A DNA stretch of 64,000 nucleotides from a virus. The stretch lies in the IMG/VR virus record IMGVR_UViG_3300036792_000218, positions 1 through 64,000 of that record; one strand, written 5' to 3'. Numbering within the stretch: the first letter of the stretch is position 1; every line of letters starts with the position of its first letter. The notes under the pieces are model-generated. The model was given only the letters and a program-made list of their open reading frames with translations. It was not told where the DNA came from and did no database searches. Below, piece after piece: positions 3,546 to 16,612 of the stretch. Made by a program: the position numbers and the translations under genes.

Positions 3546-3782
3546 TTAGCTGCCGGTGACGAGGCGGACTGAGTCGACGTCAACGGTGCGGGACGCGACG
3601 GGAGTCCGGCCGTCCTGGCTGTAGGCGATGCGGTTCTCGGTCCAGTAGTGGAGGGTGACGCGGGTGTCGTCGCCGCCGTCGACCCACCGCAGGTCGACGG
3701 TGTCGCCGATCAGGGCGGTTTCGCGGGTGAGCTCCTGGCCGTTGCGGCGGGTGTCCATGGGTGCCTCCGGTGTGATCGCCAT
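3546..3782 (-). CDS. hypothetical protein
   Basis: ATG 8 nt after the predicted +1 of promoter copy 4. Confidence 0.65.
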   Translation of the reverse strand: MAITPEAPMDTRRNGQELTRETALIGDTVDLRWVDGGDDTRVTLHYWTENRIAYSQDGRTPVASRTVDVDSVRLVTGS

Positions 3783-3785
3783 CGC

Positions 3786-3832
3786 CTTACAAAGACAACA
3801 CTACCAAAGTCAATGAGTGTTGTCACCTTAAA
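3786..3832 (-). promoter_or_regulatory. repeated promoter/operator, copy 4 (GTGACA-17-TAGTGT), divergent from terminase
   Basis: -35 at 3826-3821, -10 at 3803-3798, perfect GACAACACT...AGTGTTGTC inverted repeat. Confidence 0.85.
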
Positions 3833-3849
3833 CACGGCGGGGGTGAGCA

Positions 3850-4356
3850 ATGCCGCGACGCCGGTCCTCCGCGACCATGGAACGCGACGCCAAGGCCTAC
3901 GACCTGTTCCGCCGCGGCCTCAGCTACCGGCAGATCGGCACCGAACTCGGCGTCAGCCACCAGGCCGCATTCGAAGCGGTCCGCCGCGCCGCGAAAGACA
4001 ACGCCGCCAACCCGCTCGAACAAGCCGAGGCACGCCAGGCCGCACTCGACCGGCTGCAGGACTACCGGCGGCACGTTCTCCGGGTCCTCACCGGAAAGCA
4101 CTACGTCGTGTCCCAGGGCGGCCACATCGTGCTCGGCCCGGACAACAAGCCGCTCATCGACACCGACCCGGTACTCAGGGCCGTCGACCGGCTGGTCAAG
4201 ATCGACCAGGAAGACAGCAGGCTCCGCGACCTGTACCCGGCGGCCAAGGCCCGCGTCGAGGTCATCACCGAGGACGCGGTAGACGCCGAACTGGCCACGC
4301 TGGCGAGGCAGGTAGCCGAGAACGATGCCCGCGCCGCTGATACTGGCACCGGCTGA
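3850..4356 (+). CDS. terminase small subunit (N-terminal HTH)
   Basis: HTH (GLSYRQIGTELGVSHQAA), helical body, position overlapping the large terminase. Confidence 0.8.
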   Translation: MPRRRSSATMERDAKAYDLFRRGLSYRQIGTELGVSHQAAFEAVRRAAKDNAANPLEQAEARQAALDRLQDYRRHVLRVLTGKHYVVSQGGHIVLGPDNKPLIDTDPVLRAVDRLVKIDQEDSRLRDLYPAAKARVEVITEDAVDAELATLARQVAENDARAADTGTG

Positions 4357-5899
4357 GAAACTGCAGCGGCTCGCCGAGCTGCGCGAGCGCCTGCGGCTGC
4401 AGGAAGCCGAAAAGCTCCGCAAGACCGACCCGTTCGCGAAACTCGGATTCGCCCCGAACCCCGGCCCGCAGACCCGGTTCCTGTCACTGCCCGACGAGAA
4501 CATCGACGTCCTGTTCGGCGGGGCCGTCGGCGGCAGCAAGTCGACGTCGCTGCTCATGTACGCGATCCGCGCGTGCACCAGGTACCCAGGACTTCAGGCG
4601 TTCTGGTTCCGCCGTACCTTCCCCGAGCTTGAGCACTCCGTGGTCCGCCTCCTGGGCCGCTACGGGTTCGCCAGGGCGCTCGGCTGCCGGTGGCGGGCCG
4701 ACAAGCACGAGCTCCGGTTCCCCAACGGGTCGACGCTGACGTTCGCCCACGCGAAGAACGTCAAAGAGGCCACCGCGTTCCTGTCCGCCGAGATCAACCT
4801 GCTGCTGATCGACGAGCGGACCACGCTGCCGCCCGACGTCGTCGACCTCCTGTACACCCGCATCCGCACCGGTGTACCCGGTGTGCCCGTGCTCGGCTGC
4901 CGCAGCGCCACCAACCCCGGCGACGTCGGCCACTCACGGGTCCTGACCGACTACATCGACGCGACCGGCCACGGTGAGCGTGAGATCACCGACGACAACA
5001 ACCGCCGCCGCATCTTCATCCAGTCGAGGATCGGGGACACGCCCCAGCTCGGCGCCGACTACCTGAAGAACCTCGCGGGCCTGCCGGAAAAGCTCCGTAA
5101 GGCCTACCTGGAGGGCGACTGGACCGTGTTCGCCGGGCAGGTGTTCGACGAGTGGCGGCACGCCCGGCACGTCGTCAAGCCGTTCACGCTCCCCGAGTCG
5201 TGGAAACGGTACTCGGGCACCGACTGGGGCTTCGCCGCCCCCTGGTGCACCCTGTGGCTCGCGGTCGACGAGGACGGCCGCGTCTACGTGTACCGGGAGC
5301 TGTACGCGGCGCAGGTCGGCGAGACGCAGCAGGCGCAGCGGATCGTCGAAGCGGAGGCCGGCGAGCAGGTCGCCGTCCGGTACGCGGACGACGCCATGTG
5401 GGCCACCCGCGGCGAGCTCAAGAGCGTCGCCGACGTCTACGCGGAAAACGGCTGCCACCTGACCAAGGCGGGGAAGGGCCCTGACTCGCGGATCGCCCGC
5501 GTGCAGCGGATGCACACCTACCTCGGTGAGGCGCCCGCCTGCCCGTCGCACCGGGCGCAGGGGTGGGAGACGTGCCCGAAAGTCCACGTGTTCCCCGTCT
5601 GCGCGAACCTGATCCGGACCCTGCCGACGCTCCCGCACCCGACGACGGGCAACCCGGAAGACGTCGACACGAACGCCGAAGATCACGCGTACGACGCGCT
5701 CACCTATGCCCTGGTGAACCTCGGCACCGGCCCGGTGTTCATCCTTCCCGACCTGCCCGCCGCGCAGCTGACCGAAGGCGTCGAGGCGCTGCAGCAGGTG
5801 GGCGCGTTCGCCCGCCGGCCCGACCCGAACGCACCCGAGCGCGACCCGGACGACGACGAGGCCCCGACGGGCATGACGCAACGCGCCCCATGGGCCTGA
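4325..5899 (+). CDS. terminase large subunit
   Basis: Walker A GGAVGGSKST, Walker B LLLIDE, ATNPG coupling motif, nuclease motifs GTDWG and EDHAYDA. Confidence 0.95.
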   Translation: MPAPLILAPAEKLQRLAELRERLRLQEAEKLRKTDPFAKLGFAPNPGPQTRFLSLPDENIDVLFGGAVGGSKSTSLLMYAIRACTRYPGLQAFWFRRTFPELEHSVVRLLGRYGFARALGCRWRADKHELRFPNGSTLTFAHAKNVKEATAFLSAEINLLLIDERTTLPPDVVDLLYTRIRTGVPGVPVLGCRSATNPGDVGHSRVLTDYIDATGHGEREITDDNNRRRIFIQSRIGDTPQLGADYLKNLAGLPEKLRKAYLEGDWTVFAGQVFDEWRHARHVVKPFTLPESWKRYSGTDWGFAAPWCTLWLAVDEDGRVYVYRELYAAQVGETQQAQRIVEAEAGEQVAVRYADDAMWATRGELKSVADVYAENGCHLTKAGKGPDSRIARVQRMHTYLGEAPACPSHRAQGWETCPKVHVFPVCANLIRTLPTLPHPTTGNPEDVDTNAEDHAYDALTYALVNLGTGPVFILPDLPAAQLTEGVEALQQVGAFARRPDPNAPERDPDDDEAPTGMTQRAPWA

Positions 5900-5919: not shown

Positions 5920-7845
5920 ATGCCCCTCGCCGACCCGCGCACCTGGTTCCGCCGTCAGGTCACGGGCGACCTGGAGGAAGCCGCGCCGAGCGCCCGCGCG
6001 CTGCCCGCCAGCGCCGTCAAGCGCGCGGGCTACGAGTCGGGCATCCCGCAGGGCGGCATCGACGAGAACAGCGCAGGGGTAGGCGCGTCGACCCAGACTG
6101 ACCGCCGGTCAGCGCTGACCGAACTGTACGAGGCGTACATTGCCTGCCCGTGGGCGTGGGCGTGCGTCAACGCGATCGCCCGCACCATCACCGCCGGCGG
6201 CCTGGTCAGCGACTGGGACAGCGACAACGGCGAAGGACAGGAACAGCCCAGCAAGCCGCCCCAGGTCCTCGCGCTCGAGGCGCTGATCGCCTACACCAAC
6301 CCGCGGCAGAACATCCGCCAGCTCCTCCGCTCGTTCATCGTCGACCTGCTGGTGTTCGGCGACGCGTTCTTGGAGATCTGCTGGTGGGGCAACCAGCCCG
6401 TCGCGCTCTACAACCTGGACAGCGCGACCACGACGCCGATCGCCGACGAGCACGGCGTGGTGTCCGGGTACGTGCAGGTGACCGACTACGGCCAGAGGGC
6501 CAAGTTCGACGAGCGCGACGTCATCCACGTGTCGCTCGACTCGCCCCGCTCCGGGATCTTCGGGATTCCCCCGATGCAGGCCGCCCTGCTGCCGATCACC
6601 GTGTGGCTGCACGCCGCGGCGACCGGCAAGGAAATGATGCGCAAGGGGTTGCCGCCGGAGATCCACGCGGACTTCCCCGCCGGCACCAGCGACAACGAGA
6701 CGAAGCGCTGGCGCGACCGCTACATGATCACGAACATCGGGCCGCGGAACATCGGCGCCCCGCGGATCACCAAGGGCGGCGCGAAGCTCAACGAGCTGCA
6801 AACCGGCAAGACGACCGACGTCCTCGCGACGAAGGACCAGGCGCGCGACGAGATCCTGTCGTGCTTCGGCGTCCCCCCGTCCAAGGCGACGGTCATCGAG
6901 TCGGGCAACCTCGGAGGCGGCACCGGCGACGACCAGCACCGCACCTACGAGGTAGACACCTGCGGGCCGATCGCCGAACTCGTCCTGGAGGCGCTGAACT
7001 TCGCGGTCACCAAGAAGGGGTTCGGGATCACCGACTGGCGCATGAAGTTCCGCGAGGTCGACTACCGGTCGTCCACGATCATCGAGAACATCCGCGACCA
7101 GCGGCTCCGGAACGGCGCGTGGACGCTGAACAAGTACCGGGCGGAGATCGGGGAGCCCCCGGTCGAGGGCGGCGACGACGCGGTACTCGTCGACCGTCAG
7201 AACCTCGTGCTGTGGGCCGACATGAGCGCCATGTCGAAGGCCGTCGTCGCGAGCAAGGGCGCCCCGGCCGTCGCGGCGGGCGAGGGCACGCCGAACGGTG
7301 AGCCGATGACCGGCGCACCGCAGGACGAGCCGCAGGACGGCCAGGAGCCGCCCGCCGAGAACGTGCCCGTCCTCGTCCTGGCCAGGTACCAGGAGCGGCT
7401 ACGCGAAGCACTCGCCGCGCTGCCCGTCACCGAATCCGACGGCGCCGGCGCGGAGGTGTACGCCCAGCTCGCCCCGGCGTTCCCGCCCTCGGCTATCGCA
7501 TGGGTCAAGAAAGTCACCTGGTCAGGCCCGAAGACCGTGCCGCTCGACCAGGTCGATACCGGCGACCGCGACGACTGGGACGCCTCGCACGAGCCGGGCG
7601 AGGTCAAGCGGCTGCGGAAGAAACTCCGCCGCAAGCTCAAGCGCGGCGAGCAGCCGAAACCGCTGATCCTCGTGAAGGCCCCCGGCTCCGGTAAGTACCT
7701 GATCGCCGACGGCCACCATCACTACCTCGCCGCGGAGGCCGAGGAGCTGACCAGCCTTCCCGCGTACACCGGCAAGGTGAGCGCGAAAGACGGGCCATGG
7801 CGGACGTTCGCCACACAGGAGAAGCGTGACCGTTCCGCGGCCTGA
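5920..7845 (+). CDS. portal protein with C-terminal ParB/Srx-like domain
   Basis: Portal motifs (DLLVFGDAFLEI, DVIH, FGVPP, WTLNKYRAEIG); C-terminal PLILV...YLIADGHHHYLAA. Confidence 0.9.
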   Translation: MPLADPRTWFRRQVTGDLEEAAPSARALPASAVKRAGYESGIPQGGIDENSAGVGASTQTDRRSALTELYEAYIACPWAWACVNAIARTITAGGLVSDWDSDNGEGQEQPSKPPQVLALEALIAYTNPRQNIRQLLRSFIVDLLVFGDAFLEICWWGNQPVALYNLDSATTTPIADEHGVVSGYVQVTDYGQRAKFDERDVIHVSLDSPRSGIFGIPPMQAALLPITVWLHAAATGKEMMRKGLPPEIHADFPAGTSDNETKRWRDRYMITNIGPRNIGAPRITKGGAKLNELQTGKTTDVLATKDQARDEILSCFGVPPSKATVIESGNLGGGTGDDQHRTYEVDTCGPIAELVLEALNFAVTKKGFGITDWRMKFREVDYRSSTIIENIRDQRLRNGAWTLNKYRAEIGEPPVEGGDDAVLVDRQNLVLWADMSAMSKAVVASKGAPAVAAGEGTPNGEPMTGAPQDEPQDGQEPPAENVPVLVLARYQERLREALAALPVTESDGAGAEVYAQLAPAFPPSAIAWVKKVTWSGPKTVPLDQVDTGDRDDWDASHEPGEVKRLRKKLRRKLKRGEQPKPLILVKAPGSGKYLIADGHHHYLAAEAEELTSLPAYTGKVSAKDGPWRTFATQEKRDRSAA

Positions 7846-8038
7846 CGCGGCCCGGCTGCTCGCCGACGTCGCCAGCGCGCTCAACGCGTGCGAGGCCGCG
7901 GCCATCACGGTCAAGCTCAAGCACGGCGCGGTCATCACCCGCAACGGGTACGTGCTGCCCGTCGGCGACGCGCAGTGGGGCGCGCGGACACTGGCCTACT
8001 CACCGTTCGGCGCACCGGAGGGAGACGACGGTGACTGA
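7826..8038 (+). CDS. hypothetical protein
   Basis: GTG with AGGAG RBS overlapping the portal end. Confidence 0.6.
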   Translation: MTVPRPDAARLLADVASALNACEAAAITVKLKHGAVITRNGYVLPVGDAQWGARTLAYSPFGAPEGDDGD

Positions 8039-8162
8039 GCCGCCGCCCGAGCAGCCCTACGAGCTACCGGGCACCAGCCCGGCATGGGAACCCGGCACGC
8101 AGCCCGATCACCCGCTGAGGGCCGTGGACGCCGCGGCCCTGATCCCGAAGCAGGTCGGCTGA
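8031..8162 (+). CDS. small Pro-rich hypothetical protein (43 aa)
   Basis: GTG with GGAGGGAG RBS; TGATG coupling to the next gene; below the ORF-track cutoff. Confidence 0.45.
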   Translation: MTEPPPEQPYELPGTSPAWEPGTQPDHPLRAVDAAALIPKQVG

Positions 8163-8296
8163 TGCCCGCCGGGTGGTTCTTCGGCTGGTACCCGGCCGGG
8201 TACCGCCCCGAGCGGCCCGCCCCTTGCCACGGCAAGCGCCGCGGCGTCACCAAGTCACCCAAGCGCGCCAAGCGCCGCAACCGGAGGAAAGCCTAG
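8162..8296 (+). CDS. small basic protein (44 aa)
   Basis: Coupled ATG; Arg/Lys-rich C-terminus KRRGVTKSPKRAKRRNRRKA. Confidence 0.45.
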   Translation: MPAGWFFGWYPAGYRPERPAPCHGKRRGVTKSPKRAKRRNRRKA

Positions 8297-8298
8297 CC

Positions 8299-9018
8299 AT
8301 GCAGCCCACTGTCTGCCGCACCGTCCTGTACAGGCTCCACGCGGGCGACGCCGAGCAGATCAACCGCCTCCGCGACGACTTCGCCGCGTTCAACCGGTCG
8401 CACCGGCACGCGGACCATGAGCCGGGCAGCTTCCCCGGCCGGTCGGGGCACATCGGCCACTTCGGCAACCAGGTCAGCGAAGGCGACTCCTACCCGGCGG
8501 TCGTGGTCCGCACGTTCGGCGGCAGCACGGTCAACCTCAAGGTCCTGCTCGACGGGAACGACGACTATTGGGCGACGAGCCGGGCCGAGGGCGACGAGCC
8601 GGGCCAGTGGTCCTGGCCCCTGCTGGTGACGGGCCAGCCGCTTACGGGGACGCTCACGCGCACCGCGCCGCGGGTCACCGACCTCGTGCACTACGTCAGC
8701 CACGGCAGCCCGGTCAGGGCCGACGGGTCGCAGGCGTACAAGTCGGTATGCCGGGCGGCGATCGTGACCGGCGGCCCGCACCTGGTCTCGGGGACGTTCG
8801 ACACCGGCGGCGGCGAGGCGCTGAGCTTGTGCGTGCTCAACCCCGAGGGCATGTTCTTCAACCAGCACGTCCTGTTCGACGCGGCCGTGGCCACTCCCGG
8901 TGACCCCGAGTGCCTGAGCCGCGTCAACCACGGCAACCCGTTCCGCTACTGCGAGTGCGGGTGGATCGAGGCGGCGTTCAAGGGCGGCACCTGGCACCAG
9001 CCCGGCCCCGGCTGCTGA
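8299..9018 (+). CDS. hypothetical phage protein with two tandem related domains
   Basis: ATG with GGAGG RBS; two units of P.V...V.Y...AA/PA(I/V)V...(G)TW/QW.(W)P. Confidence 0.7.
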   Translation: MQPTVCRTVLYRLHAGDAEQINRLRDDFAAFNRSHRHADHEPGSFPGRSGHIGHFGNQVSEGDSYPAVVVRTFGGSTVNLKVLLDGNDDYWATSRAEGDEPGQWSWPLLVTGQPLTGTLTRTAPRVTDLVHYVSHGSPVRADGSQAYKSVCRAAIVTGGPHLVSGTFDTGGGEALSLCVLNPEGMFFNQHVLFDAAVATPGDPECLSRVNHGNPFRYCECGWIEAAFKGGTWHQPGPGC

Positions 9019-9025
9019 TACGCCG

Positions 9026-9322
9026 ATGTGCACGCGTCCCGGTGGCCGCGACGGCGACCCCGAGTGCCTTGACGACGAAGGCGGCCCGCTCGTCGGCGAA
9101 GACGACCCGTGCCCGGACGAGGCGGACCACGACGTGTGCCCGGACGAGGCGGACCACGACGTGTGCCCGGACGAGGCGGACCACGACGTGTGCCCGGACG
9201 AGGCGGACCACGACGTGTGCCCGGACGAGGCGGACGACGACGTGTGCCCGCACTGCCAGCGCCGCCAGCACGCCCGCTGTACCGACCCGCGGTGCACCTG
9301 CTGCCTGGGGAATGAGGACTAA
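9026..9322 (+). CDS. Cys/His/Asp-rich repeat protein (CPDEADHDV x5)
   Basis: Fills the gap between two plus-strand genes; repeat is in frame; weak RBS. Confidence 0.55.
   Translation: MCTRPGGRDGDPECLDDEGGPLVGEDDPCPDEADHDVCPDEADHDVCPDEADHDVCPDEADHDVCPDEADDDVCPHCQRRQHARCTDPRCTCCLGNED
9109..9250. repeat. 27-bp tandem repeat GTGCCCGGACGAGGCGGACCACGACGT, 5 copies plus 7 bp
   Basis: Units start at 9109, 9136, 9163, 9190, 9217; one substitution in the last unit. Confidence 0.97.
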
Positions 9323-9324
9323 CG

Positions 9325-9681
9325 ATGCGCACGGTAGCGGTCGACTTTGACGGCGTGATCCACGCGTACGGCCGGGGCTGGCAGGACGGCACGATCTACG
9401 ACGAGCCGGTTCCCGGCGCGCTCGACGCTCTCCGGACACTCATGGCGGACCACGCCGTGTTCGTGCACACCAGCCGGAACGTTGACCAGGTCGCGATGTG
9501 GCTGTCCGGCCATGGGATCGACTGCTCGCGCCTGGTCGACGATGACCGCGAATTCTGGAATGAGCTTGGCCGGGTGCTCGTGACGAACCGCAAGTACCCG
9601 GCGGTCGCCTACATCGACGACCGGGCCATCCGGTTCACCGACTGGGCGCAGGCGTTCGAAGACCTGAAGGAGTTCACCTGA
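9325..9681 (+). CDS. HAD-superfamily phosphatase (minimal)
   Basis: Motif I VAVDFDGVI, motif II HTSR, K in NRKYP, motif IV YIDDRA. Confidence 0.85.
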   Translation: MRTVAVDFDGVIHAYGRGWQDGTIYDEPVPGALDALRTLMADHAVFVHTSRNVDQVAMWLSGHGIDCSRLVDDDREFWNELGRVLVTNRKYPAVAYIDDRAIRFTDWAQAFEDLKEFT

Positions 9682-9989
9682 TGGCCACCGTTGACGTCAC
9701 CGCCCTGGCCGACGCCGTCCGCGAAACCGGGATCGGGCTCAAGCCGGGCGACGTGCTCGCGGTACGGCTGCCCATGGAAATCAACCAGGCAGAGCTTCGC
9801 CATGCCCGGACCTACGCTGACGCCGTCGGCAGGGACGCGGGGATCACGGTCGCGCTGATTCCTGGCGAGGAGTTCGCGCACACCACGGTCAACGTCAACG
9901 TGACCGTGAACGGGACAGACCCGGAGACGCTGGCCGGCGAGGTACGCCGCCAGGTGCTTGAGCGCGCCCCGGCGGGCCCGCTCGCTTAG
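9681..9989 (+). CDS. hypothetical protein
   Basis: TGATG coupling and AAGGAG RBS. Confidence 0.65.
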   Translation: MATVDVTALADAVRETGIGLKPGDVLAVRLPMEINQAELRHARTYADAVGRDAGITVALIPGEEFAHTTVNVNVTVNGTDPETLAGEVRRQVLERAPAGPLA

Positions 9990-10107
9990 GTCAGGCTGCC
10001 GGGGCCCGGTGCCAGCCCCAAGCCCCCGTGCGGGGCGGTCAGCGCGCATGGCTCGGAATCCCGGCGCGCGCCCGCCCGGCAGCCTGCAAGAACGTACGAT
10101 CGGAGGC

Positions 10108-10278
10108 ATGTTCAGCAACGACGCGTTCGGCAAGCTCCTGCGCGGCATGCTCGGGCCACCTGACCCGCAGCCGGGACCGCCGTACGCGCACACGCTGACG
10201 CACCCGGAGACCGAGGAAGAGATGGCGGCCGAACCGGCGTTGCCGTCTTTCACCGTGGAGCGTGGCCGGCGGCGCTAG
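10108..10278 (+). CDS. hypothetical protein
   Basis: ATG with GGAGG RBS inside ORF 9958..10278. Confidence 0.4.
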   Translation: MFSNDAFGKLLRGMLGPPDPQPGPPYAHTLTHPETEEEMAAEPALPSFTVERGRRR

Positions 10279-10520
10279 AACGGCACCCGGTCAGGCGGCG
10301 GCTCCCCGTACTGCTTGCGTGCCGCGTCCGCTGTCATGCCGATGGCCGCGCCGATCGCGTCCCACCCGATACGGAGTTGGCGCGCGTACCAAACGCGCTC
10401 ACGTTCCCGCTCGTCGAGCGCGGCGCGTTCGACTGGGATCTCACGGAGCCCGGCCATGATCGCCGCCTGCTCGCGGGCGAGGACCGCGGCGTCATCGTCG
10501 GCGAAGTCGTCACCCGTCAT
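10275..10520 (-). CDS. small HTH protein, counter-oriented insert
   Basis: ARQLRIGWDAIGAAIGMTADAARKQY HTH pattern; ATG coupled to 10517..10771. Confidence 0.6.
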   Translation of the reverse strand: MTGDDFADDDAAVLAREQAAIMAGLREIPVERAALDERERERVWYARQLRIGWDAIGAAIGMTADAARKQYGEPPPDRVPF

Positions 10521-10771
10521 GGAGTCCCGTTTAGCTTCCGGTTGTACGCGGCAACGAACTTGTGAGCTGACCGGACGTTCCCCTGAACGGTCCACGAGTC
10601 AAGCACCCGGCCGTCCGGTGCCCTGAGCGAGACCAGGCTGGTCGACCCGTGACCGCCCCGGCCGGGAGACTGGATTTCGGCCTGCGCGCCAGCAGTGAGC
10701 CCGCTATCGATCCGGGCCGTGCTGATCTTCGCCGGGGCATGCCGGTACGGTGCCGTAAGTTTCTTCAACAT
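10517..10771 (-). CDS. hypothetical protein, counter-oriented insert
   Basis: ATG with AAGGGGG RBS. Confidence 0.5.
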   Translation of the reverse strand: MLKKLTAPYRHAPAKISTARIDSGLTAGAQAEIQSPGRGGHGSTSLVSLRAPDGRVLDSWTVQGNVRSAHKFVAAYNRKLNGTP

Positions 10772-10916
10772 GGTGATCAGTCCCCCTTGACTGGTCTCCG
10801 GTTCCGCTGGCCAGGGCGAGGATGCCCCGTTTGAGCGCTTCGACTTCCTCGCGGGTCACGCCCGACTCGAAGTTCACGAGGTCAAGCTAGCGCCAAACCA
10901 GCGGGGAGGTTGCCCC

Positions 10917-12392
10917 GTGGCCGATGCGCAGCCCGACTACTCCGGTTCCTGCATGATCGCCCTTTACCCGCCGCCCGAGGTCGCCGGGGCGCTCGCGGTA
11001 CCGGACGGCCTCAGTGCCGAGGGCATGCACCTGACGATTGCCTACACCGGCGACGCCGCCGACGTCGACCCCGAAGCGCTCAACGCAGTCGCGCGGGCAC
11101 TCGCCGGCCGGCCGCCGGTCGCCGCGGTGATCTCCGGTCACGCGCGCTTCACCGGCGGCGAGCAGGACGTGATCGTCGCCCTCGTCGACTCACCGGACCT
11201 GGAAACGCTGCGGGCCGACGCACGGGAAGCGCTGGGTGCGGCGGGAATCGCGATCCCGTCCGAGCACGGGTTCACGCCGCACATGTCGATCCGGTACTGC
11301 GCGGCTGACGACGTCGACCCCGTTGGCCGGCTGGCCTCGTTCCCCGTGGCGTTCGGCGCGGTCTCCGCCGTCCACGGCAAGGCCCGCACCGACTACCTGT
11401 TCGACGACCCGCTGCCCGGGCAAGCCAGGGAAGCCTATGCCGCGGGGTGGGCGCTGTCCGGCGGCCCCATGACCGACCGGGTTAAGGCCGGGTGCACGGC
11501 AGCGATCGCGCGCGCCCTGGAGAACCGTCACGACCCCGCTGTCCTCGAGGTAACGCTAGACCTCGGCAAGCTGCAGGGGACGTGGGCGGAGGTGTACCGG
11601 CGACGCGAGGAACTGACCGCCGGCCACGTCGACCTGATCGCCGCGGCCTGGCGGAAGCTCGTCAAGCGCCTCGACGTGCACGACCTCGTGAAGCAGTGGA
11701 AGCGCCACGCGTCGCTGCCCGCCCCGATGGAGTCAGCCGACCAGCAATGGCGGAAAGCCGCTGTCGTCGCGGTCCTCGCCTGGCTCCGCTCCGTCCTCGC
11801 CGACCCCGACTACCGGGAGCTCGCGCAGGCGGTCACCGCCGCGCTGACCGCCGGGCAGGCCGAGGGCAGGACCGCGGCGCTCGCCGTGGCCGCCGACCAG
11901 GCCGGGGCCGTCGGGTTCGACTGGGACAAGGCCTACGACGCCATGACCCGCGACGTCGCCGTGCACCTGCCCGATGCGGCCGAACCGTGGGTGCAGCGGA
12001 TCATCGCCGGCGCGGCGGCCGACGGCGGCAAGCTGCTCGCGGACCTGGCCGACGAGGGCGAGAGCGATACGGCGATCGCCAAGGCGGTCCTCGACGTGAT
12101 CGCGGGCACCACCCCGAAGGCGCTGACGCTGATCGCTGACTACGCGATGGGCGCGGCGATGGCACGCGGCTCACTCGACCTGTACGCGTCCGAGGGCCTG
12201 ACGCTGGTCGCCTGGATGACGGCCGGGGACGGCCGCGTCTGCCCTGCCTGCCAGGACAACGAGGACAACGGCCCCTACGCGCCCGAAGCGTTCCCGTCGT
12301 GCCCCGATCACTACCGCTGCCGCTGCTGCCCCGCACCCGCCCAGCCGCTCCCCGTGTCCGCTTACGCGGCGTTCCTCGTCCCGGCCGCATAG
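10917..12392 (+). CDS. 2H phosphoesterase (Acb1-like) fused to MuF-like minor head protein
   Basis: HxT/S pair HLT (H38) and HMS (H122); C-terminal WMTAGDGRVCPAC...P..PDHYRCRC MuF motif; GGGGAGG RBS. Confidence 0.85.
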   Translation: MADAQPDYSGSCMIALYPPPEVAGALAVPDGLSAEGMHLTIAYTGDAADVDPEALNAVARALAGRPPVAAVISGHARFTGGEQDVIVALVDSPDLETLRADAREALGAAGIAIPSEHGFTPHMSIRYCAADDVDPVGRLASFPVAFGAVSAVHGKARTDYLFDDPLPGQAREAYAAGWALSGGPMTDRVKAGCTAAIARALENRHDPAVLEVTLDLGKLQGTWAEVYRRREELTAGHVDLIAAAWRKLVKRLDVHDLVKQWKRHASLPAPMESADQQWRKAAVVAVLAWLRSVLADPDYRELAQAVTAALTAGQAEGRTAALAVAADQAGAVGFDWDKAYDAMTRDVAVHLPDAAEPWVQRIIAGAAADGGKLLADLADEGESDTAIAKAVLDVIAGTTPKALTLIADYAMGAAMARGSLDLYASEGLTLVAWMTAGDGRVCPACQDNEDNGPYAPEAFPSCPDHYRCRCCPAPAQPLPVSAYAAFLVPAA

Positions 12393-13232: not shown

Positions 13233-15128
13233 GTGGCCAAGACCATCGCGACGATCACCGGCACCGCGCTCAAGCCGGGCGTGTCCCGTAACGGCCGCTG
13301 GTACAAGCCGGAGCACGTCACCGGCGCCGTCCAGAGCGCCCAGGAACGCATCGCGGCCGGCGAGAAGCCGATGGTGATGCTCACGTTCCACGGCGCCGAG
13401 GACGACAGCCGGGAGATAGCGGCGACGCTCACCGGCATGACGCTGGCCGAGGACGGCAGCGCCGAGTTCTCGGCGGGCCTGACCGACACCCCGGCCGGGT
13501 GGGACATCGCCCGGCTGACCGACACCAGCGACGGCCAGCCGGCGCACCTGCGGACCGTCAGCATCCGCGGCGCGTGGACCGGGCGCGTCCGCAAGGAACG
13601 CGGGCCCGGCGGCCAGGTCGTCGAGGTCGGGGAGGGCCTGCAGCTCGACGGCGTTGACTTCACGAAGTCACCGGGTGTCGACGGGGCGCAGATCAAGACG
13701 TTCGCGTGGGCCAAGGACGGCACCACGGAGACCACGGAGCGCGTGCTCATCACTGAGAGCGTGCAGGAGGCGCATGTGACGATCAGCGAGGAAACCGCGC
13801 CTGCCGCGCCAGCAGTGCCGGACGGGGTACGGGAATTGCTCCGCACCGTGTTCGGTGAGCACGTCGCGGAGGCGGCCACCCCGGCAGTGTCGAAGCGCGG
13901 CAGCGGCCTGTCCGACGGCTCAGGCCGCGCGTTCGCGGACCCCGGCTACCAGGCGGACAAGAAGCAGCGGTACGACCTGACCACGAAAGCCAAGGCCAAA
14001 AGCGCGTGGTCGTTCGTCAACCAGGCCGACAACGCGAAGCTGTACAGCGGCCCGCAGCTCAAGCAGATCAAGAAGCGGATCGTCGCGGCCCTGAGGAAGT
14101 TCGGGGTCACCGTCGCCGCTGAGGGCTGGTCGGTAGACCCGCCGCTGCTGCTCACCGAGGCGCTGGTCGAGTATTACGGCGGTGACCCGTCCTGCGCGGG
14201 CTCCTACAGCCTGTCCGCGACCAACGGGCCGACCACGGTCAGCATCTACTCCTACGGCTGCGACCCCGCCGACCTTCAGGTGATCCTCGCGAAGGCGTGC
14301 GAGGGCGCTGGGCTGGCCCTGAAGTCGCTCGACCCCGACATGGACGCCGACATCGACCTGCCCGGCGACGGGGACGAGAGCGCCCCGGACGAGGCCGACG
14401 CCATGGCCGAGCGGTTCGCCGCGGTGCTCCGCGGTGAGTCCGCCGAAACCCTGGACGCCCTGGTCTCCGAGGCGAGAGCGTCCGCAGCCGTCACCGAGAC
14501 GGCCACCGACCCGGCACCCGACCCGGCTGCCGCAAACCCAGAAGGAACGGAGGGCCCCGCTGTGAGCGAGACCACCCAGGAGGCGGCAGGCACGGCCACG
14601 GCTGCGCCCGCCACCCTCTCCATCCCGCAGGACATCATGGACGAGGCGATGCGGAAGGCGGCGAAGAAGGCCGCCAGGCGCGCGCTCGCCGGAACCGCGA
14701 CCACCGCCCCGGCCGAGTCCGCCCCGGCCGCGCCCGCGACCGCGGCGGTGACCGAAACCGACGAGCAGCGGATCACCCGGATCGTCGAGGCGCAGGTCGC
14801 CGCGAAGCTCGCCGAGTCGGCCGCCGCCGAGACCGAAGAGGCGCGGATCGCCCGGCTCGTCGAGCAGGGGGTGGCGGCCGCGAAGCAGCAGCTCACCGAG
14901 CAGGGCGGCGGCCCCGGCCGCAAGGGCCTCAACCCCGGCGGGACGTCGGTCAACGAGGCCGCCGGCGGCGCCGGCACCACGGCGGGCCCCGAGCTGAACG
15001 CCCACGGCATGCCGCGGGACTGGCCGGACAAGCCGCTGCACCAGTTCAGCAGCGACGAGCTTGACCAGTACGTCGGCCCGGCCGTGACCCGCCACTACCT
15101 CGGGGACCGCGCCAACCTGATCGGCTGA
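13233..15128 (+). CDS. capsid maturation protease-scaffold fusion with inserted DUF6582-like domain
   Basis: GVSRNGRWY, TFH, VSIRG, VDFTKSPG protease motifs; FADPGY...RY...AWSFVNQ...IKKRIVAALRKFGV insert (13932-14108); Ala/Glu-rich scaffold; precedes the capsid gene. Confidence 0.85.
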   Translation: MAKTIATITGTALKPGVSRNGRWYKPEHVTGAVQSAQERIAAGEKPMVMLTFHGAEDDSREIAATLTGMTLAEDGSAEFSAGLTDTPAGWDIARLTDTSDGQPAHLRTVSIRGAWTGRVRKERGPGGQVVEVGEGLQLDGVDFTKSPGVDGAQIKTFAWAKDGTTETTERVLITESVQEAHVTISEETAPAAPAVPDGVRELLRTVFGEHVAEAATPAVSKRGSGLSDGSGRAFADPGYQADKKQRYDLTTKAKAKSAWSFVNQADNAKLYSGPQLKQIKKRIVAALRKFGVTVAAEGWSVDPPLLLTEALVEYYGGDPSCAGSYSLSATNGPTTVSIYSYGCDPADLQVILAKACEGAGLALKSLDPDMDADIDLPGDGDESAPDEADAMAERFAAVLRGESAETLDALVSEARASAAVTETATDPAPDPAAANPEGTEGPAVSETTQEAAGTATAAPATLSIPQDIMDEAMRKAAKKAARRALAGTATTAPAESAPAAPATAAVTETDEQRITRIVEAQVAAKLAESAAAETEEARIARLVEQGVAAAKQQLTEQGGGPGRKGLNPGGTSVNEAAGGAGTTAGPELNAHGMPRDWPDKPLHQFSSDELDQYVGPAVTRHYLGDRANLIG

Positions 15129-15235: not shown

Positions 15236-16612
15236 ATGCCGTCAGAGCTCCGCGAGGCGCTGAACGCCGCCGGCGCATCAGCCCTAGTCCCGAAGATCAT
15301 CTCCCCGATCCTGGTCGAGTACCAGCGTCGTTACGCGCCGCTGTGCCGCTCGATCCCCATGGAACCGTGGGCATCGGACATCTACTACTTCAACCAGCGG
15401 ACGCAGAACCCCGGCGGCGGCGCGGTCCCCGACGGCGGCGCCCGCCCGGTCACCAACTCGACCTACGTGCAGAACCAGTTCCAGATGAAGCACGTGGAGA
15501 GCGTCGGCGCGGTCACCGGCTACAGCCAGGAAGTGACCCGGCAGCTGATCGGCGACCTGCGGCAGACGGAAATCCAGGGGTCCATCAAGGGCTACTACTG
15601 GGACGTCGAGACGTTCATCGGCTGGGGCAACGCCGCGGCCACCCTGAACCAGGCTCAGCCGCAGTTCGACGGCCTCGACACGCTGATCAACACGTTCAGC
15701 GGCGGCACCCAGAACGCCATCGACAAGGCCGGCAACTCGTTCACCCTCGCGTTCGCGGACGAGCTGATCGACATGGTGGAGTCCAACGCCGCCATGCCGG
15801 TACAGGACGAGTCGTGGATGTTCGTCACGAGCTCGACGGGCAACAGCCGGTTCAGCCAGCTGCTGCAGAACCAGCAGCGGTTCATCGACAAAGTCGAGAT
15901 CGCTCCGGGCCTCATCGTGCCGTCGTACAGGAACATCCCGATCGTGAAGTCGTCGTTCCTGTCGATGCGAGGCTACAACGTCGGCGCGGTCACCTCCGCG
16001 ACCGCCGCGAACGCCGCGGCGACGCTGAACGGCACCTACAAGTACACGGTGTCCGCGATCATCGCCCGCCAGGGTGAGATCGCGCCGAGCGCCGAGGTGA
16101 GCCAGGCGGTCACCACGGGCAACAACGTGGTCCTGTCCTTCACCCCGCCGTCCGGTCAGGACGGGCTCGCGCCGCAGCTTTACAAGGTGTGGCGCACCGC
16201 CGCGAACGGCGCGTCGGGGTCGGAGACGTTCCTCGGCTACGTCGATGCGACGGTTGGCCTGCTCGCCGACGGCGTGACGCAGGTCCTCACCAACCAGATC
16301 GTCGACACCGGCGCGGCGCTGATCCCGATGCAGTCGAGCGGCAGCATCGTCCCGGGCATCCTGCCCGCGACGTACATCGGGACGAACACGGCGATGCTTC
16401 CCCCGTCCGCCGGCCTGGAGAACTTCTTCCTGATCAGCCGGGACCGGGGCAACCTGTGCCGCCCGTACGTGCGCGAGGCGAAGCCGCTCGACGTGTACCC
16501 GACCACGGCGGCCCCCGACACGCTGCCCTACGCAGTCATCGGGGACACCACGCTCGCGGTCCGGGCGCCCAAGTTCCTCGGGCGCCTGTACCGCACCGCG
16601 ATCGCGGTCTAG
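15236..16612 (+). CDS. major capsid protein with Ig/FN3-like insertion
   Basis: Position after scaffold; GAGAGGAG RBS; LVPKII, QFDGL motifs; insert TYKYTVSA...E..PSAEVS...VVLSFTPP...YKVWRT. Confidence 0.88.
   Translation: MPSELREALNAAGASALVPKIISPILVEYQRRYAPLCRSIPMEPWASDIYYFNQRTQNPGGGAVPDGGARPVTNSTYVQNQFQMKHVESVGAVTGYSQEVTRQLIGDLRQTEIQGSIKGYYWDVETFIGWGNAAATLNQAQPQFDGLDTLINTFSGGTQNAIDKAGNSFTLAFADELIDMVESNAAMPVQDESWMFVTSSTGNSRFSQLLQNQQRFIDKVEIAPGLIVPSYRNIPIVKSSFLSMRGYNVGAVTSATAANAAATLNGTYKYTVSAIIARQGEIAPSAEVSQAVTTGNNVVLSFTPPSGQDGLAPQLYKVWRTAANGASGSETFLGYVDATVGLLADGVTQVLTNQIVDTGAALIPMQSSGSIVPGILPATYIGTNTAMLPPSAGLENFFLISRDRGNLCRPYVREAKPLDVYPTTAAPDTLPYAVIGDTTLAVRAPKFLGRLYRTAIAV

Follow-up and report, generated by a model that had tools for sequence, protein, structure and literature searches.

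A 64,000-nucleotide stretch of viral DNA (positions 1 to 64,000 of IMG/VR record IMGVR_UViG_3300036792_000218; hereafter the window, whose numbering is used throughout) carries at 10917..12392 a gene for a two-part protein, in which a 2H phosphoesterase domain stands in front of a MuF-like head morphogenesis protein. The open frame starts with GTG, encodes 491 amino acids and lies on the plus strand, as does every feature given below without a strand. As judged from its sequence the 2H domain is catalytically intact, and it belongs to a large and distinct actinophage lineage of 2H enzymes, neither Acb1 nor housekeeping ThpR. We propose that this enzyme may be carried in the capsid and degrade the nucleotide messengers of host immunity. 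We rank this reading first, with a probability of roughly 0.4, and its weakest step is the substrate. A more specific form of the proposal, in which a virion-delivered nuclease is already present at DNA entry and destroys the cyclic oligonucleotides of cyclic oligonucleotide-based anti-phage signalling systems (CBASS) or of type III clustered regularly interspaced short palindromic repeats (CRISPR) systems in actinobacteria, we regard as more doubtful. The idea of an anti-defence enzyme carried in the virion, at which the initial annotation of this gene arrived, is an independent rediscovery of a published prediction.

The identity of the N-terminal domain is well supported. The 2H superfamily model PF13563 scores 53.8 bits (expectation value, E, 2.9e-14) against a cutoff of 27, which puts the 2H motifs far beyond chance, and the same model matches every member of two sets of relatives (50/50 and 76/76). 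Together with an AlphaFold2 model it delimits a core at residues 11-162 (10947..11402) with the two-lobed alpha+beta fold and the two H-x-T/S motifs of the superfamily. All of the 2H and MuF motifs on which the initial annotation relied are present, and their catalytic and Cys/His residues are conserved across the family, as counted over 114 aligned full-length homologues. The first catalytic motif, H38-L-T40 in MHLTIAY (11028..11036), is invariant (114/114) and aligns with H44 of T4 Acb1; the second, H122-M-S124 in FTPHMSIRY (11280..11288), keeps its histidine in 112 of the 114, aligns with H113 of T4 Acb1 and is preceded by a clade-specific H117-G118, with H117 found in 109. VIVALVDSPDL occupies residues 85-95. 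Invariant positions are H38, T40, R77, D84, R138, C445, H465 and C470, and C442 and C468 are retained in at least 90% of homologues. Two further elements, a P-D-(Y/F)-S motif and the junction between the two halves, are nearly invariant. The former reads P-D-Y-S here (residues 6-9; 10932..10943), precedes strand 1 in a part modelled with lower confidence, and has as its counterpart in the alignment the N-terminal K-D-F-S of T4 Acb1; that this tail might act as a lid or a substrate contact is only an idea. The junction, a helix and loop at residues 165-189 (AREAYAAGWALSGGP..., 11409..11483), has an invariant G177 and nearly invariant W178 and P184, and may be a domain interface or a processing site. 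The AlphaFold2 model, built from the family alignment, has a mean predicted local distance difference test score of 94.3 and a predicted template modelling score of 0.80, and lays out the protein as the 2H core, a long helical part and a Cys/His element at the end. One might suppose that such a fold serves head assembly as a scaffold or nucleic-acid-binding module and has no enzymatic function during infection, given that SPP1 gp7 is reported to bind both DNA and the portal. We consider this very improbable: the HxT/S motifs, H117, R77, D84 and R138 show little or no variation over the 114 homologues, at 43-87% identity, and in distant relatives, a pattern typical of an active enzyme.

The remainder of the protein (residues 190-491; 11484..12389) is mostly helical, and on sequence comparison we accept residues ~190-491 as a divergent MuF-type protein. 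We do so because several lines of evidence agree: matches to PHROG families, the Cys/His motif, matches to minor capsid protein models, relatives that pass the curated cutoff, and the position of the gene among head genes. At least eight PHROG families of minor head or head morphogenesis proteins are matched, including 595, 2662, 16619, 2841, 19480, 1657 and 4728; phrog_2662, which is the C-terminal extension of portal-MuF fusions, covers residues 224-470. Models of phage minor capsid proteins in BFVD align structurally over 280-450 columns. The Cys/His cluster C442-x2-C445...H465-x2-C468-R-C470 (12240..12326), a MuF hallmark identified by its conservation and by motif alignment, is a probable zinc site. 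Its CxxC...HPxCRC pattern aligns with Wheelbite gp17 (81%, E 1.2e-5), and in a profile comparison with mycobacteriophage Angel gp4, the MuF4 seed, the HxxCRC stretch alone was aligned. The curated MuF models stay below their cutoffs for this protein, PF04233 at 21.3 against 29.6 bits (E 4.8e-4) and TIGR01641 at 22 against 39.65 bits (E 1.6e-4), both within residues 373-473, and the relatives P0139 (49.6 bits) and P0120 exceed the cutoff of PF04233. The family profile did not match SPP1 gp7, the MuF prototype (probability 0.2), in a test for which single-sequence templates are weak, and the search for solved structures similar to the C-terminal part returned none. With that reservation about the curated models, the fusion of an N-terminal 2H domain to a MuF-type head protein, as initially annotated, stands.

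The protein belongs to a same-architecture family of more than 200 proteins of similar length, 43-87% identical, from prophages and metagenomes. Databases call them "2'-5' RNA ligase family protein" and sometimes "SPP1 gp7 family head morphogenesis protein", and the lysogens that carry the fusion include Streptomyces, Peterkaempfera, Kitasatospora, Actinomadura and a metagenome-assembled genome of Streptosporangiaceae. An exhaustive search with residues 1-180 yielded 2,907 clusters at 50% identity (E<=0.001). In the best 150 of these the position of the 2H domain varies: it lies at the N-terminus, in the interior or at the C-terminus, or stands on its own. The family-specific MuF model also matches 41 of these best 150, and in 40 of them the 2H domain comes before MuF. 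The suggestion that the enzyme occupies the opposite end from the usual MuF arrangement thus holds in comparison with MuF toxins and fails within the clade itself. Among the 76 relatives without a family-type MuF part, the Pfam domains found as partners are portal proteins of three Pfam types (14/76), XkdF-type prohead protease (10/76), S78 protease (2/76), Mu-like protease (1/76), Phage_Mu_F (3/76), peptidoglycan-binding domains (4/76), Zeta toxin (3/76), NUDIX (2/76), and InPase, topoisomerase IB and DUF6582 (1/76 each); RNA ligase is not among them (0/76). Relative P0139 is a triple portal-2H-MuF fusion, and portal-2H fusions occur as well. The domain is also present in 419 records of cultured phages, most of them annotated "RNA ligase", a label that comes from the historical 2'-5' ligase name and is probably misleading; 'aldolase class I' and 'capsid maturation protease' are further annotations, and a Mycobacterium cluster includes Alice and NoodleTree. 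In cultured phages the arrangement varies, from a 2H domain with an XkdF protease (Wheelbite gp18) to MuF followed by 2H (Salete gp11) and standalone 2H genes directly after the portal gene (Cantare gp9, GMA6 orf12). The window gene thus belongs with head-associated phage 2H domains, which are fused or adjacent to MuF or portal and have no link to RNA ligase. Some relatives are more elaborate: a Hint/intein domain (PF13403, PF14890) interrupts the MuF part of P0128 (883 amino acids) and P0031 (714 amino acids), and the giant polyvalent proteins P0146 (3693 amino acids) and P0179 (3010 amino acids) contain the 2H-MuF unit at their N-terminus or as a module farther inside.

Repeated fusion to three kinds of protein that share nothing except residence in the procapsid argues for selection for encapsidation, and because the lineage is nearly always fused or adjacent to head-internal proteins we favor the view that the 2H enzyme is capsid cargo. 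The most direct evidence comes from the Gordonia phage GMA2, whose Orf10 contains a 2H domain homologous to ours (29% identity over 129 amino acids, E 9e-10). Mass spectrometry of purified GMA2 virions recovered an Orf10 peptide, SEVGDYDAYTPHITAVTGQQAR, that spans the second HxT motif (Dyson et al. 2015, PMC4524720 Table S5). A 2H domain of the same lineage is therefore physically present in virions, which makes packaging of the window protein plausible and falls short of proof for it; to that extent the earlier proposal of a virion-carried enzyme is supported.

How might such an enzyme work? By analogy with SPP1 gp7, the MuF-like part would bind the portal and so bring a few copies of the protein into the procapsid. 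The 2H enzyme would then be capsid cargo, would enter the cell with the DNA, and once injected would cut a phosphodiester bond adjacent to a ribose 2'-OH. The likeliest class of substrates would be host immune messengers, that is, the cyclic oligonucleotides of CBASS or type III CRISPR or 2'-5'-linked species, and the protein would then be a pre-made counter-defence enzyme, similar to Acb1 in action and outside the Acb1 family. Several observations support a role in signal degradation. The phage has no RNA-repair partner for the enzyme, and no RNA ligase is found among the partner domains; the co-fused NUDIX and InPase domains suggest cargo centred on nucleotides. By hhalign the family profile lies closer to T4 Acb1 (81%, E 1.2e-5, 108 columns from the N-terminus, 27% identity) than to E. 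coli ThpR (30%, E 5.6e-4, 92 columns), a weak preference for Acb1 at the level of sequence profiles; BLASTP similarity to T4 Acb1 has an E of 5e-5. A single distant relative, P0150, passes the cutoff of the Acb1 model PF23474, with 31.1 bits. Finally, five of seven phage 2H structural groups that have been assayed cleave messenger nucleotides (Doherty et al. 2025 preprint).

Other findings weigh against messenger cleavage or against delivery. The initial annotation called the domain Acb1-like, a description that we do not uphold: against PF23474 the full protein scores 17.1 bits and the isolated domain 19.7, both below the cutoff of 27 bits. This model matches 21 of 50 family members at E<0.01, LigT_PEase matches 30 of 50, and in the set of 76 relatives the count is 55 for LigT_PEase and 4 for Acb1. 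Acb1 stacks bases through Y12, W74, F107 and W147, with E141 as a further residue (Hobbs et al. 2022, PMC9117128); in our alignment, at 27% identity and with F78 and H117 one position off the stacking sites, Y12, W74 and F107 fall on the non-aromatic M13, T79 and E116, and the region of E141 and W147 does not align with the family. The C-terminal lid of Acb1 is also absent, as strand 156-161 is followed by a helix at 165-181 and then by the MuF part, and the domain sits inside a 491-residue protein rather than forming a compact standalone enzyme of ~150 residues. For two of the seven phage 2H groups assayed, not one of the 18 messengers was cleaved (Doherty et al. 2025 preprint). A SMODS cyclase (PF18144) occurs in one of ten fusion-bearing lysogens, which is about background in a small sample and with Pfam covering part of the CD-NTases, and so carries no weight. 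As for delivery, ejection of MuF cargo with the DNA is itself a hypothesis in the literature (PMC5576092, PMC5512222). PMC5576092 cites 1-2 copies of SPP1 gp7 in each capsid, and so few MuF copies may be insufficient to clear a burst of messenger, a real quantitative objection.

Scarcity in the virion and the hypothetical status of ejection would also suit an enzyme that acts late and is not injected at all. Fusion to MuF would then mainly ensure abundant co-expression with late structural proteins, and the enzyme, free or bound to the head, would work in the producer cell when capsid and terminase proteins trigger defences, so that delivery to the next host would be irrelevant. The gene does lie in a late head operon, and T4 acb1 (57B) is likewise among late and virion genes: in the region 3592-4411 of the T4 record it adjoins 57A and ipI, the gene of an internal virion protein, so that the prototype also has virion-related neighbors. 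Even so, we think a purely late role unlikely, as position in the operon would suffice for co-expression, fusion to portal, MuF and prohead protease fits encapsidation better, and the GMA2 domain is retained in purified virions.

A more serious competitor to messenger degradation concerns the substrate. A packaged 2H enzyme might act on RNA, opening the 2',3'-cyclic phosphate ends that metal-independent defence ribonucleases such as anticodon nucleases and HEPN enzymes generate; variants of this explanation are reversible 2'-5' rejoining of the LigT type and an Usb1-like ribonuclease acting on host RNA. Comparison of the structural model with Acb1 and with LigT/ThpR, which had been put forward as a check on the Acb1 assignment, lends it some support, since the closest structural neighbors of the domain are ThpR, LigT and cyclic phosphodiesterases (CPDases): drCPDase (5h7e) scores 17.2, ThpR (1iuh) 16.8, PH0099 (1vdx) 15.2 and E. 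coli LigT (5ld*) 14-14.9. Usb1 (5v1m and others) follows at 13.8, Rotavirus VP3 (5af2 and others) at 13.6, AKAP18 (5jj2 and others) at 13.2 and PDE-9 (9q2g) at 12.4, ahead of Acb1 itself (7t26, 7t27) at 11.5 and 10.5 and the Penguinpox cyclic GMP-AMP phosphodiesterase (9ciw, 9bkq) at 9.8. Part of the gap to Acb1 reflects its smaller size (129-137 against 150-158 aligned residues), and sequence points weakly the other way. The best match of the family profile in the Protein Data Bank (PDB) is the Acb1-group PDE-9, at a non-significant E of 0.064; a PDB search with the single protein gave matches to PRMT2 only, which we judged spurious. A housekeeping LigT, the alternative named in the initial annotation, is not what we find, as the ThpR equivalog model TIGR02258 gives 25.3 bits against a cutoff of 65.7, a shortfall of 40 bits. 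The choice between Acb1 and LigT is otherwise unsettled by sequence or fold, and the substrate cannot be assigned by homology. Several points speak against action on RNA: in addition to the missed equivalog model and the profile preference for T4 Acb1 over E. coli ThpR, the complete phage genome contains no RNA ligase (PF09414), RtcB, AAA_33 kinase or polynucleotide kinase, and no ligase occurs among the fusion partners. The kinase partners are true members of the Zeta-toxin family (63-78 bits), which the literature describes as directed at the cell wall, and they occur in 3 of 76 relatives; we considered a Zeta/AAA_33 kinase and 2H domain as an RNA-healing pair and rejected it as weak. We therefore hold action on RNA to be a tentative explanation, below messenger degradation in our ranking and well above a purely late role.

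The source record is a complete actinophage genome of 92,369 bp with direct terminal repeats and without host DNA, and the window includes its head module. The genes follow in the order large terminase (4325..5899), portal protein with a C-terminal extension (5920..7845), the 2H-MuF gene, a protease/scaffold-like head protein with DUF6582 (13233..15128) and major capsid protein (15236..16612). A ribosome-binding site, GGGGAGG (10903..10909), lies 7 nucleotides 5' of the GTG start of the 2H-MuF gene. Extra domains are present in three consecutive head genes, those for the portal, the 2H-MuF protein and the protease/scaffold. The portal extension measures ~148 amino acids (7399-7845); portal residues 561-607 have a weak NCBIfam match (E 1.5e-4) to SerK, a kinase of the ParB/Srx fold, and the extension alone has no match in Pfam. 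Such an extension would be in keeping with the head cargo that Iyer et al. 2017 describe as 'DdrB-like ParB'. In the product of 13233-15128, DUF6582 (PF20223) scores 35 bits over residues 233-295 and the match to a protease PHROG is faint; one relative has DUF6582 fused to a 2H domain of this clade. Roughly 3 kb of small genes (7846-10916) separate the portal gene from the 2H-MuF gene. These include a region at 8173-9018 that matches two PHROG families with no assigned function, a HAD-like protein at 9325-9681 (phrog_1238), and reverse-strand open reading frames at 10275-10595 and 10517-10771 whose only match is a weak one to a Myb-like helix-turn-helix. At ~9026-9322 lies a tandem DNA repeat of which one frame reads as five copies of the nine-residue PDEADHDVC and which is also repetitive in the remaining frames and on the opposite strand.

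To our knowledge, the characterised anti-CBASS enzymes that degrade signals (Acb1, PDE-9 and Apyc1) are all produced once infection has begun. An enzyme carried in the capsid would be at work ahead of all phage gene expression. If our proposal is correct, this would be the first demonstrated counter-defence enzyme that is injected and degrades a signal, and it would stand for thousands of 2H proteins fused to portal, MuF or protease. The family, or its relatives GMA2 Orf10, Salete gp11 and Wheelbite gp18, offers a direct test of the prediction made in 2017 by Iyer et al., and such work would also correct the widespread "RNA ligase" misannotation. The value of the window gene lies in being a good, well conserved candidate for experiment; it brings no new concept, architecture or hypothesis.

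Set beside known systems, the domain shares with Acb1 (T4 gp57B; Erwinia phage FBB1, PDB 7T26/7T27; PF23474) two similarly spaced HxT/S motifs (H38/H122 in the window protein, H44/H113 in T4), as well as an N-terminal D-[YF]-S and a [YF]TPHx[TS]xxY stretch. With PDE-9 of Burkholderia phage BCSR5 (PDB 9Q2G/9Q2Y) it has in common D[VI]xVxL[VL]DSPDLE and HG...H.T, and the functional lid of PDE-9 is N-terminal, as the conserved N-terminal tail of our family might be. Identity to cellular ThpR/LigT and drCPDase (1IUH, 5LDM, 5H7E) is 14-18%, and unlike those housekeeping enzymes the window gene is phage-encoded and fused to a head protein. MuF toxins (Jamet et al. 2017, PMC5576092) resemble it in that a MuF protein of a temperate phage carries an extra enzyme whose delivery is hypothesised. 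The order in the toxins is MuF first and toxin domain last, the hosts are mostly Firmicutes, and an immunity gene lies downstream; the window protein begins with its enzyme, which is not an obvious toxin, has an actinobacterial host, and is accompanied by no immunity-type gene that we could identify. GMA2 Orf10, an 883-amino-acid 'putative structural protein' (KR063281) encoded right after the gene in portal position, contains the homologous 2H domain and differs in its C-terminal placement, its larger size, the lack of a Pfam-detectable MuF and its origin in a lytic Gordonia phage. One virion ejection protein is already known to bind and thereby block a CBASS effector, and our literature search on Acb1 combined with MuF found no relevant paper. 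Doherty et al. 2025 describe multidomain phage 2H enzymes, protease fusions among them; that preprint does not discuss packaging, and a search of its supplements found no actinophage or head-fusion member. The closest precedents are two surveys. Iyer et al. 2017 (PMC5512222 section 20, Fig. 5B) reported 2H domains fused to MuF or portal, with no RNA ligase partner, and proposed a ribonuclease or signal-degrading role, and Iyer et al. 2022 (PMC9503650 section 3.4.5) took the fusions to suggest packaging in the head and injection against SMODS, cyclic-mononucleotide and CRISPR signalling. The window gene has the same class of architecture, the same head context and the same hypothesis attached to it. 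Those surveys are computational; what we describe is a ~490-residue 2H-then-MuF family from prophages of Streptomyces and Streptosporangiales, with statistics on domain order, a structural model and a comparison with the later-solved Acb1. Both the architecture and the idea of an injected anti-signal enzyme are thus already published as predictions, and the window gene adds another member to the class.

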